A stretch of 64,000 nt of DNA from Burkholderiales bacterium (GTDB taxonomy: Bacteria; Pseudomonadota; Gammaproteobacteria; Burkholderiales; JAEUOS01): NCBI GenBank assembly GCA_947473125.1, contig CANJDH010000007.1, positions 15,598 to 79,597 on the forward strand. Direction: 5' to 3'. Under the pieces are notes generated by a model that worked only from the letters and a program-made list of their open reading frames with translations, searched no databases and was not told the origin of the DNA. Of the stretch, positions 36,321-42,199 are shown piece by piece. The position numbers were made by a program, and so were the translations under genes. The stretch's first letter is position 1, and the number at the start of each line of letters is the position of its first letter.

Positions 36321-36346
36321 CGCAGGTCTAGTACGCAGGTCTAGTA
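36321..36346. repeat. 13-bp perfect tandem duplication CGCAGGTCTAGTA x2 spanning the PCuAC stop codon
   Basis: Copies at 36321-36333 and 36334-36346. Confidence 0.9.
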
Positions 36347-36817
36347 CTTGTGCTGCCTGTCGTCCTTGGCGGCGGCCTTCGGCGCCGCGCCGGTCAGCGA
36401 GCGTGCCGCGGCCTTGATTTCCACGGTTTCTCGCTTCTTGTCGCGGCCTTCGAACACCAGCGTCAGCGGCACGCGGTCGTCCGCTTTGACCTGGCCTTTG
36501 AGATCCATCAGCATCACGTGGTAGCCACCCGGCTTGAGCTCGACGGCCTTGCCGGCCGGCAGGACAACGCCCTCGACGGCACGCATCTTCATCACGTTGT
36601 TCTCCATCTTCATTTCATGGATCTCGACGATGCCGGCGATCGACGATTTGGCTTCGATCAGCTTTGAATCTGCCGGCGCGGTCAGCTGCATGAAGGCGCC
36701 GGTGGCGGTCTGCTGCGGCACGGTGGCGCGCACCCAGGCGTCCTTGACGGCGACTTGTGCAAAAGCGGAAGTGCTGCAAACGGTGGCGATGAGAGTGGCG
36801 AGAACTGTGTGTTTCAT
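36341..36817 (-). CDS. Periplasmic copper chaperone PCu(A)C
   Basis: Signal peptide; AWVRAT, GAFM, EIHEMKMENNVMKMR...LKPGGYHVMLM (H-x-M...H-x-M Cu motif). Start at ATG 36817. Confidence 0.93.
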   Translation of the reverse strand: MKHTVLATLIATVCSTSAFAQVAVKDAWVRATVPQQTATGAFMQLTAPADSKLIEAKSSIAGIVEIHEMKMENNVMKMRAVEGVVLPAGKAVELKPGGYHVMLMDLKGQVKADDRVPLTLVFEGRDKKRETVEIKAAARSLTGAAPKAAAKDDRQHKY

Positions 36818-36973
36818 GATGACTCCTTGGCTGAAATGGATGAAGCGGATTCTAGAAGCGTGCGCGGGTCGTCGGCGACCTGGTCCGCTGGGTGCTCGTG
36901 GCATCGCACCCACAAGCGGCCTGAAAACCGTTAGCGGGCGCGGCTTTGGAGCCGAACCCGCAGCAAGGCTGGG

Positions 36974-37351
36974 TCAGGCGCGCGCTGGTGGCCCGGTCGC
37001 GGGAGGCGTGTGGTGCGTCAGGCCCGCTTCCGCGCGGGCAAGATGCGTGTTGCTGCCAGCGCGACCGCCCGCAGGGTTTGGCGTGCGCGGCGTTGAAGCT
37101 GCGGGCGTGGCCGACCCCGAGCACAGCGGGCAATGCAAACCATGCTGTTCACCGGCATTGGCGGGCGCCTCGACCGGCACTCCATCAGCGCCGAGACTGA
37201 CGCGCTTGATGCCGCCGCCCGAGAGGCACATCTCGACCAACAGGCCGACGCCACCGGTCGGCTGCGCATACGCGGCGAGCGGCATGGCCGCCTGCGGCAG
37301 CGCCAGAAGCAGCGCGAGCCAGACAAAACGGAGGCGGTTGAAGAGGTGCAT
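36974..37351 (-). CDS. DUF2946-family (CruR/CutF-like) leader protein, C-terminal TGPP
   Basis: N-terminal hydrophobic helix, VEMC, HCPLC (CxxC), Pro-rich end PPATGPPARA. Confidence 0.75.
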   Translation of the reverse strand: MHLFNRLRFVWLALLLALPQAAMPLAAYAQPTGGVGLLVEMCLSGGGIKRVSLGADGVPVEAPANAGEQHGLHCPLCSGSATPAASTPRTPNPAGGRAGSNTHLARAEAGLTHHTPPATGPPARA

Positions 37352-37360
37352 GGCGGCGCC

Positions 37361-37425
37361 ATTCTAGCGCCAAGCCGCGCGCCTGCGCCATCCAATTGAT
37401 GCGAAGCGGCAGCCGATGCTACAAT
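37361..37425. promoter_or_regulatory. Divergent -10 elements of the two DUF2946 genes
   Basis: Minus strand TAGAAT (37366-37361) lies 9 nt before ATG 37351; plus strand TGCTACAAT (37417-37425) lies 6 nt before ATG 37432; no SD before either start. Confidence 0.55.
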
Positions 37426-37431
37426 TCGCCG

Positions 37432-37833
37432 ATGCACCAGTTCGCAAAATCAAGACGAGTCGCCGCCTGGATCGCCGCTTTGGCGATTATGCTGTCTGCG
37501 CTCGCACCGTCGATTTCGCATGCCCTGGTTGCCTACGCGGGCGGACCGGCCGACTCCGTGCTGGTATGTACCTCCGCCGGCTACAAGTGGGTCAATGTAT
37601 CGACCGGCGAGCAGCCCAATGCGCCGGCTGAAACCGAAAAGGCCGGGAACCACTTCGAGCGTTGCGCGTTTTGCGGCACCCACGCCGACACTTTTGCACT
37701 CGCTCCGCTCGATGGCATCACCGCTCCGGTGATCGACGCGGTCCATCTCGCGCCATCCCTGTTCCATCACTCGCCACGCCCGCTGTTCGTGTGGTCCGCA
37801 TCGCGCTCGCGCGCCCCTCCCGCCCTCTCCTGA
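37432..37833 (+). CDS. DUF2946-family (CruR/CutF-like) leader protein with RAPP arrest motif
   Basis: WIAALAIMLSALAPSIS helix, LVCTSAG, RCAFC (CxxC), C-terminal SRSRAPPALS; upstream of a TonB-dependent uptake operon. Confidence 0.88.
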   Translation: MHQFAKSRRVAAWIAALAIMLSALAPSISHALVAYAGGPADSVLVCTSAGYKWVNVSTGEQPNAPAETEKAGNHFERCAFCGTHADTFALAPLDGITAPVIDAVHLAPSLFHHSPRPLFVWSASRSRAPPALS

Positions 37834-37898
37834 TCCTCGCAAGAGCGCCCACCTGACTTGTTCGGGCAGGCTTTCGTGTTGCATCCGGAAGGGACGTC

Positions 37899-38666
37899 AT
37901 GTCCGACGCTGTTGCCCCGCGCAGCCACGCTGCCAACGGGCATCTCGACAATCAGTCAAGCCTGCCAGGTTCGCTTAGCGCGAATCTGGTTGGTGGCTTT
38001 GACGCATTCGACGCGCGCGAATCGCTGGCCGCACGCCTGGCCAAGCTCGCCGGCGTGGTGGCATTGCACGCCGCATTGATTGCGTTGGCCCTGACGATCC
38101 AGCCGCGCCTGCTGGACGAACTGTTGCCGAAGCCACTGAATGTGCGCACGATTGTTGAAGAGGTCAAGCCGCCGGAGCCGCGCAAGCCCGAGGTGATTCC
38201 GCCGAAACCACTGCCGCAGGCCAGGCAGGTGGCACGGCCGCCGCAGCCGGCGCCGCCGGTGATGACCGGGGCATCAAACGCGGATTCCGCGCCCGCGACA
38301 TTTGCCGTGACGCCACAACCTGCGCCGGTGCCGCTTGCGCCTCCTGCACCGCCGGCACCCGTCGCCGCTCCGGCTCCGGCGCAGGTCACGGCAGCGCGCT
38401 TTGACGCCGACTACCTGAAAAATCCGCCGCCCGCCTACCCCTCGCTGTCGCGCCGCCTGCGCGAGGAAGGTCGCGTGCTGCTGCTGGTGCGCGTTTCCGC
38501 GCAGGGCGCGGCCGACAGCGTGCAGTTGCGCCAGAGCAGCGGGTTCTCCCGCCTCGACGAGGCTGCAATCGAGGCGGTCAGGCAATGGCGCTTTATCCCT
38601 GCGAAACGCGGTGACGAGGCGATTGCCGCATCCGTCATCGTACCCATCGTTTTTCGTATCGAATAA
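37899..38666 (+). CDS. TonB energy transducer
   Basis: TM anchor with conserved His (VVALHAALI), Pro-rich spacer, C-domain NPPPAYP...GRVLLLV...SSGFSRLDEAA. Confidence 0.93.
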   Translation: MSDAVAPRSHAANGHLDNQSSLPGSLSANLVGGFDAFDARESLAARLAKLAGVVALHAALIALALTIQPRLLDELLPKPLNVRTIVEEVKPPEPRKPEVIPPKPLPQARQVARPPQPAPPVMTGASNADSAPATFAVTPQPAPVPLAPPAPPAPVAAPAPAQVTAARFDADYLKNPPPAYPSLSRRLREEGRVLLLVRVSAQGAADSVQLRQSSGFSRLDEAAIEAVRQWRFIPAKRGDEAIAASVIVPIVFRIE

Positions 38667-38686
38667 ATCCCAATCTAGGAATTTCC

Positions 38687-40999
38687 ATGAATCGCCACAT
38701 CAACAAGACACACGCGACAGTACTGCTGGCTGCTTTCGCCGCTCCCGCATTCCCCCAACAAGCTGCAGAACAAACCCTTGCGCCGGTGGTCGTCAGGGAA
38801 GCCCCGTCTGCCGCCGACAAGGTACAGAGCCCGGCCACCACCGAGAGCATCACGCGCGAACGCATCAACGACACCACCAACGTGATGAACGCGGAAGACG
38901 CCTTCCGGTATATGCCCAGCACGGTCGTTCGCAAGCGGCACATCGGCGACACCCAGGCACCAATATCGACCCGCACCTCCGGCCTCGGCGCCAGCGCGCG
39001 CAGCCTGATCTTTGCCGATGGCATGCTGCTCTCGGCGCTGATTGCAAATGACAACAACAACGGCGGCCCGAAGTTCGGCATGATCAATCCCGAAGAGATC
39101 GAGCGCATTGACCTGATGTACGGCCCGTTCTCGGCCGCCTATGCCGGCAATTCGATCGGTACAGTTGCCGAGATCACGACACGCATGCCGGACAAGTTCG
39201 AGGCGACAGCGAAGTTCTCGGAAAACTGGCAAAACTACAAGCAATACAGCACCAGCGACACCTATGTGTCGAAACAGGGCAGCGCCCTGATCGGCAGCAA
39301 GGTCGGGGATTTGTCATTCTGGCTTGGCGCCAACCACCTCGACAGCAACAGCCAGCCCCTCACTTACGTGACCACGCCGGTACGGCCCGCGGCAGCCGCC
39401 GGTACCACGGCCACCGGGGCGATCCTCGATGCCAACCGCAACGGCAACCAGATTTTCATTCTCGGTGAGAGCGGCCTCGAACACCATATCCAGGACAACT
39501 TCAAGATCAAGGTGGCCTACGACTTCACGCCGACGCTGCGCGCCACCTATACCGGCGGTATTTTCCAGAACAACACCACGTCGTCGGTCAAGACCTACCT
39601 GACGGATGCAGCCGGCCGGCCGTTTTACGGCAACGGCACCGTGCTCAATCTCGGCGGCTACAACTCGGCCAACGCCGGCCAGACGGCGAACGCCACGGTG
39701 GCCAACACCGCGTTCTCCAGCGGCATGTACAAGTTCATAGAAGAACACACCATGCACAACGTCTCGATCAAGTCGAACACCAGGGGCATCTGGGACTGGG
39801 AAGCGACCGCCACCAGCTACAACTACGGCAAGTCCGAAAAACGCACGCCGACCAGCGCGATGCCCAATGCGATGAGCGGCGGCGCCGGCACCATCCTCGA
39901 CATGGCCGGCACCGGTTGGGGTGCAGCCGATGTGAAGGGTTTCTGGCGGCCGCTGGGCATCAACGGCGCGCACAGCGTGAGCTTTGGCGCGCACTATGAC
40001 CGGTCGATACTGGACCAGCCGACCTGGAACACCACCTACTGGCTCAGTGGCGACAAGACCACGCTCAATTCCGACTCGCGCGGCAAGACCGAGACCCGCG
40101 CGGTGTGGGGCCAGGACGTGTGGAAATTTGCACCCGGCTGGAAAGCCACCCTCGGCGCGCGGGTCGAGCGCTGGCGTGCGTTTGACGGCCGCAACCTCTC
40201 CGCCGGCATCAACTCCGTGCAGCCGGGCCTCAATGCCGCGGGCTTTTCGCCCAAGGCATCCGTGTCGTGGGAAGTCAGCAAAGATTGGCTCGTGACCGGC
40301 TCGGTCGGGCGCGCCTACCGCTTTCCGACCGTGACCGAGCTGTACAAGGCGGCCACAGTAGGCGGCGTGACCAGCTTCCCCAATCCCAACCTGCAACCTG
40401 AACACGCCTTGTCCAGTGAACTGTCGTTCGAGCGCGCCCTCGCCGACGGCCGCTTGCGCGTATCGCTGTTTCAGGAATACGTGCGCGACGCACTGATCTC
40501 GCAGAGCACCCTGATCGCGGGCGGGGTAACCAATACCGTCGTGAATGTGGACCAGACGCGTGGACGCGGCGTCGAAGTGGTTTATCAGCAGAACAACGTC
40601 TTCATGCGCGGCCTCGAACTGATGGGCAGCGTGACCTACTCGGATACCCGTGTCATCGCCGACACTGCCTACCCGACAGCCGTGGGCAAACAAATACCCA
40701 ACGTGCCGATGTGGCGTGCCACCGCGACGGCAACTTATCGTCCGAATGACCAGCTGGCCGCAACGCTGGCGGTGCGCTACCTGGGCAAGCAATACGGGAC
40801 GATTGAAAACTGGGACGGCTACGGGCATACCTACCAGGGATGGGAAGGTTTTTTTGTTGCCGACGTGCGCGTGCGCTACAAGATCGACAGGAACTGGACC
40901 GCCTCGGTCGGCATCGACAACCTGAACAACTACAACTACATCATGTTCCACCCGTTCCCGCAACGTTCGCTGAGTGCGGAATTGAAATACACCTACTGA
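38687..40999 (+). CDS. TonB-dependent outer membrane receptor (probable metal or metallophore uptake)
   Basis: Signal peptide, TonB-box-like TLAPVVV, plug motif IERIDLMYGPFSAAY, NPNLQPE, GIDNLNN, aromatic C-terminus. Confidence 0.95.
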   Translation: MNRHINKTHATVLLAAFAAPAFPQQAAEQTLAPVVVREAPSAADKVQSPATTESITRERINDTTNVMNAEDAFRYMPSTVVRKRHIGDTQAPISTRTSGLGASARSLIFADGMLLSALIANDNNNGGPKFGMINPEEIERIDLMYGPFSAAYAGNSIGTVAEITTRMPDKFEATAKFSENWQNYKQYSTSDTYVSKQGSALIGSKVGDLSFWLGANHLDSNSQPLTYVTTPVRPAAAAGTTATGAILDANRNGNQIFILGESGLEHHIQDNFKIKVAYDFTPTLRATYTGGIFQNNTTSSVKTYLTDAAGRPFYGNGTVLNLGGYNSANAGQTANATVANTAFSSGMYKFIEEHTMHNVSIKSNTRGIWDWEATATSYNYGKSEKRTPTSAMPNAMSGGAGTILDMAGTGWGAADVKGFWRPLGINGAHSVSFGAHYDRSILDQPTWNTTYWLSGDKTTLNSDSRGKTETRAVWGQDVWKFAPGWKATLGARVERWRAFDGRNLSAGINSVQPGLNAAGFSPKASVSWEVSKDWLVTGSVGRAYRFPTVTELYKAATVGGVTSFPNPNLQPEHALSSELSFERALADGRLRVSLFQEYVRDALISQSTLIAGGVTNTVVNVDQTRGRGVEVVYQQNNVFMRGLELMGSVTYSDTRVIADTAYPTAVGKQIPNVPMWRATATATYRPNDQLAATLAVRYLGKQYGTIENWDGYGHTYQGWEGFFVADVRVRYKIDRNWTASVGIDNLNNYNYIMFHPFPQRSLSAELKYTY

Positions 41000-41027
41000 T
41001 GCGGCAATCCAACGTGAAGGAAGCAAC

Positions 41028-41756
41028 ATGAACCAACCCATGGGCCTGGCCCACTTCTGGGCACAGGGCGACGCCGTCACCCACGGCGTTGCCATCATGC
41101 TACTGATCATGTCGGCGGCGAGCTGGTACATCACGCTCGGCAAGCTGGTGGCGCACCTGCGTTACAGCGCGTCGATCGACAAGGCGCTGGCGGCATTTTG
41201 GGGTGCCGAGTCCCGTCCACTGGCACTCGAGGCAATCCGCAGCGAGGACAAATCCGGAGCCTTCACACGCGTCGCGACCGACGCGCTGCTGGCCGCCGAG
41301 ACCTACGAACAGCATGCGGCCAAAGGCATCGGCGCCGGCGTCGACAAGAGCGACTTCGTGGCGCGCGTGCTGCAGCAGTCGATCGTGGTGGCGCAGGCGC
41401 GCATCGAGCGCGGGTTGACCTTTCTCGCTTCGGTCGGATCGACAGCGCCTTTTGTGGGCCTGTTCGGTACGGTGTGGGGCATCTATCACGCGCTCGTCGG
41501 CCTGTCGGGCGCCTCGCAGGTGGTGCTCGACAAGGTAGCAGGGCCGGTGGGCGAGGCGCTGATCATGACCGCGGTGGGATTGTTTGTGGCGATTCCCGCC
41601 GTGCTCGCCTACAACGCCTGTGCGCGCGCCAACCGGCTGGTGCTGGCGCGCATCGAAGGCTTTGCGCACAGCCTGCATGCCTATGTGGTTGGCGGCATGC
41701 GCATGGGTGGCGAGCGTGGTGCCGCGCCTACCCTGCGCGCGGTCAACGGCAAATAA
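41028..41756 (+). CDS. exbB: ExbB (MotA/TolQ/ExbB proton channel)
   Basis: LASVGSTAPFVGLFGTVWGI, GEALIMTAVGLFVAIPAV. Confidence 0.93.
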   Translation: MNQPMGLAHFWAQGDAVTHGVAIMLLIMSAASWYITLGKLVAHLRYSASIDKALAAFWGAESRPLALEAIRSEDKSGAFTRVATDALLAAETYEQHAAKGIGAGVDKSDFVARVLQQSIVVAQARIERGLTFLASVGSTAPFVGLFGTVWGIYHALVGLSGASQVVLDKVAGPVGEALIMTAVGLFVAIPAVLAYNACARANRLVLARIEGFAHSLHAYVVGGMRMGGERGAAPTLRAVNGK

Positions 41757-41767
41757 GGCGGCACATC

Positions 41768-42199
41768 ATGGCATTCACTTCCTTTGACACCCATCGTTCG
41801 ATGCAGCCGATGGCCGAGATCAATACCACACCGCTGGTCGACGTGATGCTGGTACTGCTGGTGATATTCATCATCACCGCGCCGCTGTTCCATCAGGCGG
41901 TGCCGGTGGACCTGCCCAAGGTGGACAGCAGCAAGCTCGACGACAAATCCAAGGTGGTGCAACTGGCGATCGACGGCAGCGGGGGCGTCTTTGTCGACGG
42001 CGTTGCCACCCCGCACGAAACGCTTGGTGCAGCGCTCAGGCAACGTGTCATCGCTGGCCAACCCGCGCCGGAGCTGCATTTGCGCGGCGACCGGGCGACG
42101 CGCTATGAGCGGGTTACCGAAGTCATGGCCGCCGCGCAAAAGGCCGGCATCACCAAGATTGCCTTCGTGACAGACGGAACCGGGGACCAGAAAAAATAG
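41768..42199 (+). CDS. exbD: ExbD/TolR family protein
   Basis: EINTTPLVDVMLVLLVIFIITAP, LRGD...Y..V..VM. Start at ATG 41768. Confidence 0.93.
   Translation: MAFTSFDTHRSMQPMAEINTTPLVDVMLVLLVIFIITAPLFHQAVPVDLPKVDSSKLDDKSKVVQLAIDGSGGVFVDGVATPHETLGAALRQRVIAGQPAPELHLRGDRATRYERVTEVMAAAQKAGITKIAFVTDGTGDQKK

Follow-up and report, generated by a model that had tools for sequence, protein, structure and literature searches.

Bacterial copper acquisition is poorly understood, and leader peptides of the DUF2946 family are, to our knowledge, the sole known nascent-peptide sensors of a transition metal. The first of the closest described systems is CruR (Bp2923), from the Bordetella pertussis operon cruR-crtA(bfrG)-bp2921. 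By the published rule, its CxxC and C-terminal RAPP motifs lie 45 +/- 2 residues apart with RAPP three residues before the stop codon, and a C>G 'bubble' in the gene contains a Rho entry site (Roy 2022, PMC9426467). In vitro, CruR arrests at RAPP with two proline codons in the P and A sites of the ribosome (Fujiwara 2025, PMC12992588), and systematic mutagenesis of RAPP peptides found the arginine 'irreplaceable' for arrest (PMC12992588). The second system is CutF, the leader of cutFOG in Rhodobacter capsulatus (Ozturk 2023; bioRxiv 10.1101/2025.02.05.636593). It is likewise a DUF2946-like exported leader with a cysteine motif and a C-terminal proline motif, and a stem-loop that hides the ribosome-binding site of the next gene is opened by the paused ribosome. 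The RAPP/RGPP arrest peptides ApdA, ApdP and SecM (RAGP) monitor Sec/YidC activity (Sakiyama 2021, Morici 2024, Fujiwara 2024/2025). The locus described here contains two DUF2946 leaders placed head to head. It occupies positions 36341-42199 of the window, the whole 64,000-nt stretch of DNA analysed, which comes from the lake-water metagenome-assembled genome of a Burkholderiales bacterium (GCA_947473125.1, contig CANJDH010000007.1). Judged by its sequence, the copy on the plus strand is an orthodox CruR-type leader; the copy on the minus strand belongs to a distinct, undescribed clade ending in TGPP. The locus is a variant assembly of known parts and involves no new principle; what is new is the rare layout and a putative variant stalling motif.

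Exactly 80 nt separate the start codons of the two leaders, of which the plus copy heads tonB, a TonB-dependent receptor (TBDR) gene, exbB and exbD, and the minus copy heads pcuAC. An earlier note on this DNA had proposed this arrangement, with two DUF2946 open reading frames (ORFs) 80 bp apart and a hydrophobic N-helix, a CxxC and a proline-rich end in each. Domain calls by Pfam agree with it: both ORFs exceed the gathering score of PF11162 (DUF2946), 23.7 bits, the genes that follow match the expected families, and all three elements were located in both ORFs. The note's account of CruR (CxxC, RAPP, post-transcriptional copper control) and of CutF is likewise that of the papers. Since both ORFs exceed the curated cut-off and both have conserved homologues, the pair does not appear to be a product of chance. 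The features of the locus are as follows.

36341-36820, minus strand: pcuAC, periplasmic copper chaperone of 159 amino acids (aa) (PF04314, 130.9 bits), with its ATG at 36820 and an AAGGAG Shine-Dalgarno (SD) sequence upstream
36821-36973, minus strand: spacer of 153 nt separating the TGPP leader from pcuAC, C-rich and, by folding, structured
36974-37351, minus strand: DUF2946 leader of the TGPP clade, 125 aa (PF11162, 30.3 bits)
37352-37431, no strand: divergent control region of 80 bp with back-to-back promoters, by promoter scan
37432-37833, plus strand: DUF2946 leader of predicted CruR type, 133 aa (PF11162, 60.2 bits, over the full-length profile, 1-117)
37823-37893, plus strand: predicted stem-loop of the leader tail and the tonB SD region, from folds
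37899-38666, plus strand: tonB (TonB_C; PF03544, 75.6 bits)
38687-40999, plus strand: TonB-dependent receptor, 770 aa, with Plug and TBDR barrel domains
41028-41756, plus strand: exbB (PF01618, 106.8 bits)
41783-42199, plus strand: exbD (PF02472, 100.3 bits)

The plus leader begins with KSRR, a hydrophobic 15-mer (KD 2.37) and SHA-L (N-segment VAAWIAALAIMLSAL). The export signals of both leaders, each a basic and then hydrophobic stretch up to an AxA-like site, were judged from inspection and hydropathy only, with no signal-peptide predictor. CAFC occupies residues 78-81 (nt 37663-37674) and RAPP residues 127-130 (nt 37810-37821), followed by ALS and the stop codon. The 45 residues between the two motifs and the position of RAPP three residues before the stop are those of the CruR rule. 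This geometry is well conserved among the 90 full-length homologues drawn from a 5.8-billion-protein collection: RAPP is present in all 90, the spacing is 45 residues in 81, and three residues trail the motif in 75. The last 160 nt of the gene, corresponding to a C>G bubble in its 3' third, are C-rich, with an excess of C over G of +9 to +15 per 40 nt. The plus copy therefore shares with CruR the PF11162 domain, the export signal, the CxxC, the spacing, the RAPP near the end, the bubble, a place at the head of an operon that includes a TonB-dependent receptor, and the expected repression by copper. Like ApdA, ApdP and SecM, it is a small exported protein that has the core motif close to its C-terminus and is encoded ahead of the gene that it would regulate. 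The operon differs from that of B. pertussis in its cargo, which has a non-CrtA receptor and no PepSY_TM gene, and in the distance from the leader to the next gene (65 nt in the window, 162 nt in B. pertussis). A TTG at 37396 was considered as the leader start, which would give a protein of 145 aa with positions numerically equal to those of Bp2923. It was rejected, as the homologues start at ATG 37432 and the extension would take in the conserved -10 box.

The minus leader consists of a hydrophobic N-segment (FVWLALLLALPQAAM) followed by AYA-Q, then CPLC at residues 74-77 (nt 37132-37121) and TGPP at residues 119-122 (nt 36997-36986), after which come ARA and the stop codon. Its PF11162 score, export signal and CxxC are those of the DUF2946 family. 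The earlier note had the two leaders ending in RAPP or TGPP motifs. RAPP is indeed present in the plus copy, but the minus copy, with TGPP at 41 residues from CPLC rather than RAPP at 45 +/- 2, is further from CruR and falls outside the CruR/RAPP definition. In five close homologues PATGPP is invariant and the spacing is the same, with a freely variable linker. A profile search of 1.84 billion cluster representatives retrieved 73 relatives, each row being a 50%-identity cluster. Those ending in (PP)ATGPP(P) form a single clade (support 97/92) of 26 TGPP rows, three nested RGPP rows and one TDPP row. Conservation across the motif columns (in %) is P93 P85 A81 T100 G100 P100 P100, and the CxxC-to-motif distance is 41-44 residues. 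Conservation confined to the motif and its distances to the CxxC and the stop codon would be expected if selection acted on a nascent-chain element. A literature search found no paper that mentions TGPP in a DUF2946 or arrest context.

Elsewhere, leaders of the TGPP clade head TBDR-PepSY_TM-PCuAC, small ORFs followed by SCO1-PCuAC, or MbnP-MbnH-PCuAC. The QAPP of one genome in the same order (G086) and the TGPP of the window had suggested that leaders preceding PCuAC are generally without the arginine; this was abandoned, as 14 of the 16 PCuAC-leading leaders in the locus set carry RAPP. A conserved block (..AAAGCCGCgCCCnCYAACGGkTTTCAGGC..) follows the stop codon of the TGPP leader in the window (36914-36973) and in three related loci (L003, L005 and L006). 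It is kept despite a different next gene, which is PCuAC in the window and a 98-aa ORF with SCO1 in L006.

Both leaders are closely preceded by promoter elements. The plus promoter consists of a -35 box, TTGATG (37396-37401), and at 18-nt spacing an extended -10 box, TGcTACAAT (37417-37425), that ends 6 nt before ATG 37432. On the minus strand a -10 box, TAGAAT (37366-37361), ends 9 nt before ATG 37351. No SD sequence precedes either leader in the 80-bp control region. L003, L006 and L009 share both conserved -10 boxes, the latter two despite a different neighbouring minus-strand gene. For the beta-proteobacterial branch (80 named loci, L014-L093), 77 distinct RAPP leaders were compared. A good -10 box ends 4-9 nt (mostly 6) before the ATG in 51 of these and is TG-extended in 42 of the 51, and an SD sequence lies upstream of none of the 77. 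The TGPP leaders show the same pattern of a -10 box near the ATG and no SD sequence. As the -10 boxes in the window end 6 and 9 nt before the start codons and SD sequences are absent, the leader mRNAs are probably leaderless or nearly so. A leaderless start would couple the first ribosome to RNA polymerase, which would be sensible for a leader that antagonises Rho. The CruR and CutF papers searched do not mention this pattern. No RNA run contains the window stretch; runs for a Janthinobacterium homologue, stored only as contigs and thus of no use for 5' ends, contain at most 11% of its sequence words. In three relatives (L104:1760-1800, L106:7140-7178 and L095:560-594) the hslU stop codon (TAG or TAA) belongs to the -10 hexamer of the TGPP leader, which starts 6-7 nt further on, so that the promoter overlaps the end of hslU.

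Downstream of the plus leader, an outer helix is predicted between the end of the leader, its last codons plus stop (37823-37834), and the tonB SD region (37883-37893), with an inner hairpin at ~37839-37879. The tonB SD sequence itself, GGAAGGGA, lies at 37887-37894. In the thermodynamic ensemble it pairs with the leader tail with P = 0.86, a value reached by none of 200 shuffles of the intergenic region and by 4% of tail shuffles. The outer helix is retained in L006, where the inner hairpin has a different sequence. This pairing also appears to be general: across 36 distinct RAPP/RGPP leaders that have an SD-led gene no more than 140 nt away, P averages 0.70 as against 0.36 for shuffled sequences, and the value is higher than the shuffled one in 34 of the 36 (Wilcoxon p = 4.6e-7). 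Masking of this kind by the leader's own tail is a further difference from CruR. The spacer on the minus strand contains C>G stretches and folds at -74 kcal/mol (z -1.9). Neither spacer matches a riboswitch or other known RNA in Rfam at E<=1.

Spacers of other loci show features of their own. In the ~84 nt after the leader stop, many of the Herminiimonas-type loci L016-L041 have a strong GC-rich hairpin, 10-20 nt past that stop. An SD-led small ORF that begins MSTRR or MSTRL follows the hairpin and precedes PCuAC or the receptor. The motif GCATCC often occurs after the hairpin, and is likewise found in the window at 37876-37884.

The predicted tail-SD helix bears on what kind of product these genes have. 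They could encode stable periplasmic copper-binding chaperones or adaptors working with PCuAC and the receptor, rather than leaders acting in cis; a signal peptide, a CxxC and a position that is always beside copper-handling genes would all suit such a role. The helix, however, is a feature of the mRNA, and the leader is always first in the operon. Conservation is restricted to the N-terminal signal, the CxxC, the C-terminal motif and the spacing, with the linker free to vary, and the products of cruR and cutF either escape detection or are quickly degraded, and function in cis only (Roy 2022, PMC9426467; Ozturk 2023). A stable protein thus seems very improbable.

The locus is probably an island for copper acquisition, lying between hslU and argS, with two head-to-head DUF2946 upstream-ORF units, in which the plus unit is of CruR type and the minus unit would act through a pausing TGPP peptide. 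Transcription of the plus unit from the extended -10 promoter would begin at the leader ATG or only a few nucleotides from it, and on the resulting leaderless mRNA the first ribosome would follow close behind RNA polymerase. By analogy with CruR, this ribosome would translate the exported CxxC peptide and arrest at RAPP when Pro129 occupies the P site and Pro130 the A site. The arrested ribosome would cover the last leader codons and so free the tonB SD sequence, as in SecM and CutF. It would also shield the leader's C-rich 3' end, where Rho is likely to enter, and tonB-TBDR-exbB-exbD would then be both transcribed and translated. Copper bound to the nascent CxxC would release the arrest, upon which the helix would re-form, Rho could act and uptake would be switched off. 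The minus unit would have the resident leader of the island, most likely with a proline-dependent pause that is probably weaker or EF-P-sensitive. Transcriptional polarity across the structured 153-nt spacer would couple pcuAC expression to copper.

Several observations weigh against this model. The minus leader has Thr at the position of the essential Arg and lacks the R-(A/G)-P-P core that the plus copy possesses; because of this replacement it is not, by the published rule, an arrest peptide of the RAPP class to which ApdA, ApdP and SecM belong. The tail-SD helix is absent before pcuAC (P = 0.001), whereas TGPP relatives ending in CUCCUGA do mask the SD sequence (P = 0.73-0.93, with L094, L097, L102 and L104 at 0.85-0.93). 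In the window, the last three codons of the minus leader have changed from S-x-S (CUCCUGA) to A-R-A. As the Arg is missing and the tail leaves the pcuAC SD sequence unmasked, the model is at its weakest in the regulatory link from this leader to pcuAC. The intergenic region of the plus unit, taken as a whole, folds no more stably than shuffles do (z +1.3, not significant). Overall fold stability was discarded as evidence, and only the specific pairing of tail and SD sequence stands out. The B. pertussis cruR mRNA has a 45-nt leader, so the leaderless start predicted here would be a feature of the clade and not a rule for the family. The copper specificity of the plus operon is drawn from association, since the receptor is neither CrtA nor OprC and copper is suggested as its substrate by the gene neighbourhood.

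The same features of the minus leader might indicate that the locus has one CruR switch and a passenger. A rearrangement would once have deleted the gene or genes after the minus leader, pcuAC would simply be expressed from the shared promoter region, and the TGPP peptide would either not stall or stall without consequence. The absence of the Arg essential for RAPP arrest, the unmasked SD sequence, the altered last codons and the spacing of 41 rather than 45 residues are all in line with this. Such a loss of function seems unlikely, however, given that PATGPP and its distances to the CxxC and the stop codon do not change between the window, L003 and the members of a clade made up of 50%-identity clusters, while the linker is free to vary. 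The minus ORF is intact and its -10 box has been kept, and the C-rich stretches and 153-nt spacer resemble the Rho-type design of CruR.

Similarity to CutF raises the question of the direction of the response. In one or both leaders, copper on the nascent chain could induce an EF-P-sensitive pause, and the genes would be on at high copper; the two units could then even respond to copper in opposite directions. The PPATGPP(P) end, with its GPP(P), is closer to the EGPPPRL of CutF than to RAPP, and the signal peptides of both leaders are of Sec type. The CutF design also has a stem-loop over the ribosome-binding site of the next gene, as predicted in the plus unit and absent from the minus unit. 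CutF itself has a CxxxC and a PPP repeat; both window leaders have a CxxC and neither has PPP. The plus copy, however, is of the CruR and not the CutF type by its CxxC, spacing and RAPP. CutF controls a copper-induced detoxifying multicopper oxidase, whereas the cargo here and in related loci serves acquisition and assembly (TonB receptor, PCuAC, SCO1, MbnPH), and is copper-repressed in the case studied. The CutF direction is for these reasons distinctly unlikely. A bolder reading, which we hold to be unlikely, is that the pair comprises two mechanistically different nascent-chain metal sensors on leaderless mRNAs from back-to-back promoters, one an EF-P-refractory RAPP arrest peptide and the other an undescribed PPATGPP pausing peptide with Thr in place of the 'irreplaceable' Arg. 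If this is true, uptake and chaperoning would be set at different copper thresholds, or in different directions, from a single 80-bp region.

The genomic context in related organisms indicates how the pair may have arisen. Genomes of the same genus or family have the order hslV-hslU-TGPP leader-(receptor and/or chaperones)-PCuAC-argS-SPOR. In the window this hslU-argS frame is found on the minus strand, with the TGPP leader directly followed by pcuAC (its product is 90% identical to the PCuAC of L006). Between hslU and this TGPP leader stands the RAPP cassette, leader-tonB-TBDR-exbB-exbD, oriented the other way. Noviherbaspirillum and other genomes share the cassette frame, at ~70% (ExbB) and ~50% (TonB) identity and with different receptors. 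In the closest metagenomic relatives a gene for an NF033672 'copper uptake system-associated protein', in some cases accompanied by a second receptor, lies between the two leaders, and L003 has an identical 80-bp head-to-head pair whose leader proteins are 78% and 83% identical to those of the window. Because the relatives have an hslU-argS island led by a TGPP leader, to which the window adds an oppositely oriented RAPP cassette, the layout appears to be a lineage-specific rearrangement of a modular copper island and not a dedicated bidirectional switch. The earlier note had proposed a bidirectional twin-sensor switch; nothing points to coordination of the two units, which differ in mRNA design. 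The NF033672 protein, which is absent from the window, has 161 aa, is exported and His-rich, and belongs to no Pfam family (L006:4303-4788, L009:1181-1666, L103:8036-8554).

Comparable units are found in other arrangements. Operons with the frame cruR-tonB-TBDR-exbB-exbD, as yet unstudied, occur in Noviherbaspirillum and relatives (L017, L045, L019, L071, L059). In tandem cruR-PCuAC-cruR-TBDR loci of Herminiimonas and Oxalicibacterium (L032, L040, L078) the chaperone and the receptor each stand behind a DUF2946 leader of their own, as in the window. All of these differ from the window in being co-directional or single operons, in that both leaders are of RAPP type, and in a receptor cassette that varies between loci.

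A census of ~800 genomes and ~190 loci shows that divergent pairs are rare. Among 401 genomes of the same order, 139 have DUF2946 and 37 have two or more copies, and adjacent divergent pairs are found in two of the 139, the window's genome and G086. The 401 genomes sampled across the phylum include 116 with DUF2946, and again two have such a pair (the window's genome and G655). One of the 80 named Oxalobacteraceae-type loci does so as well (L028, Rugamonas fusca). The metagenome contig L094 also has a divergent pair, in which the left copy reaches the contig end before its motif and resembles the RAPP type. Co-directional pairs less than ~5 kb apart occur in at least 11 genomes of the phylum sample, and co-directional doubles in five of the 80 named loci. 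Divergent pairs thus make up roughly 1-2% of DUF2946-bearing genomes, yet recur in unrelated lineages with similar cargo; tandem pairs and single operons are commoner. A twin layout unique to the window is refuted by L003, L094, G086, L028 and G655. The earlier note had considered the layout undescribed and had called for such a census. No paper treating divergent DUF2946 pairs as such was found in a literature search, but each half already figures in published synteny surveys. The DUF2946 cargo lists include TonB-dependent transporters, PCuAC and ScoC (Roy 2022, PMC9426467), the neighbours include TonB-like proteins and PCuAC (Ozturk 2023), and TonB/ExbBD and PCuAC are listed in such operons (Hachmi 2026, PMC12914433).

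The cargo of the other divergent pairs is informative. In G086 it is PCuAC on one side and TBDR-PepSY_TM-TonB on the other. In G655, from another class of the phylum, a TBDR is opposed to ExbB-ExbD and a 237-aa ORF with no Pfam match (L107:4170-9912), so that the uptake receptor and its energiser each stand behind their own leader. In R. fusca (NZ_JACEZS010000001.1, L028:5300-14100) a 346-aa unknown protein and an AhpC/TSA redoxin lie opposite ThiF-rhodanese, ThiS, a CoA-transferase and an AMP-ligase. The ThiF-ThiS side resembles a pathway for a thiocarboxylate-type metallophore, placed behind a copper-type leader.

Three points may be less expected by specialists: the PPATGPP clade, the apparent leaderless starts and the generality of SD masking by the leader tail. 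The clade is sizeable and offers a test of the published rule of an indispensable Arg; should TGPP prove to stall ribosomes, arrest motifs of this class would have wider sequence rules. In this branch of DUF2946, leaders seem to lie at the 5' end of the mRNA, and their final codons seem to mask the ribosome-binding site of the next gene, a design that would combine the CruR (Rho) and CutF (stem-loop) models. That chaperone and uptake modules each keep a private sensor through rearrangements suggests that separate tuning of the two steps matters.

The receptor of the plus operon appears to belong to an uncharacterised class, without a characterised or solved member. A comparison with NCBIfam gave 18 hits, none above the cut-off; no equivalog was found, and TIGR01778 (OprC/NosA) is not among the hits. 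A phmmer search of the PDB at E<=1 matched only PhuR and PirA and not the structure of CrtA(Bp), 9RVQ, and assignment of the receptor as CrtA- or OprC-type was rejected on these grounds. The nearest solved relative is PhuR (E = 7e-11). The receptor gene is followed by exbB and not by the PepSY_TM gene that usually comes next in the CrtA family. Orthologues at 42-46% identity follow cruR in Oxalobacteraceae. A tblastn search of the nearest relatives' loci with the window receptor, including that of the 78%-identical relative, gave no match at E<=10, because the receptor downstream of tonB in these relatives belongs to a different cassette. The window TonB is 61% identical to that of L006 and 49-52% identical to those of Noviherbaspirillum and L036 in the same operon frame, and the window ExbB is ~70% identical to that of the cruR-tonB-TBDR-exbBD loci L017 and L045. 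Across the window (38687-40999), L008:1896-4121 and L045:9246-11372, the frame leader-tonB-[receptor]-exbB-exbD is kept and the receptor is swapped between unrelated classes.

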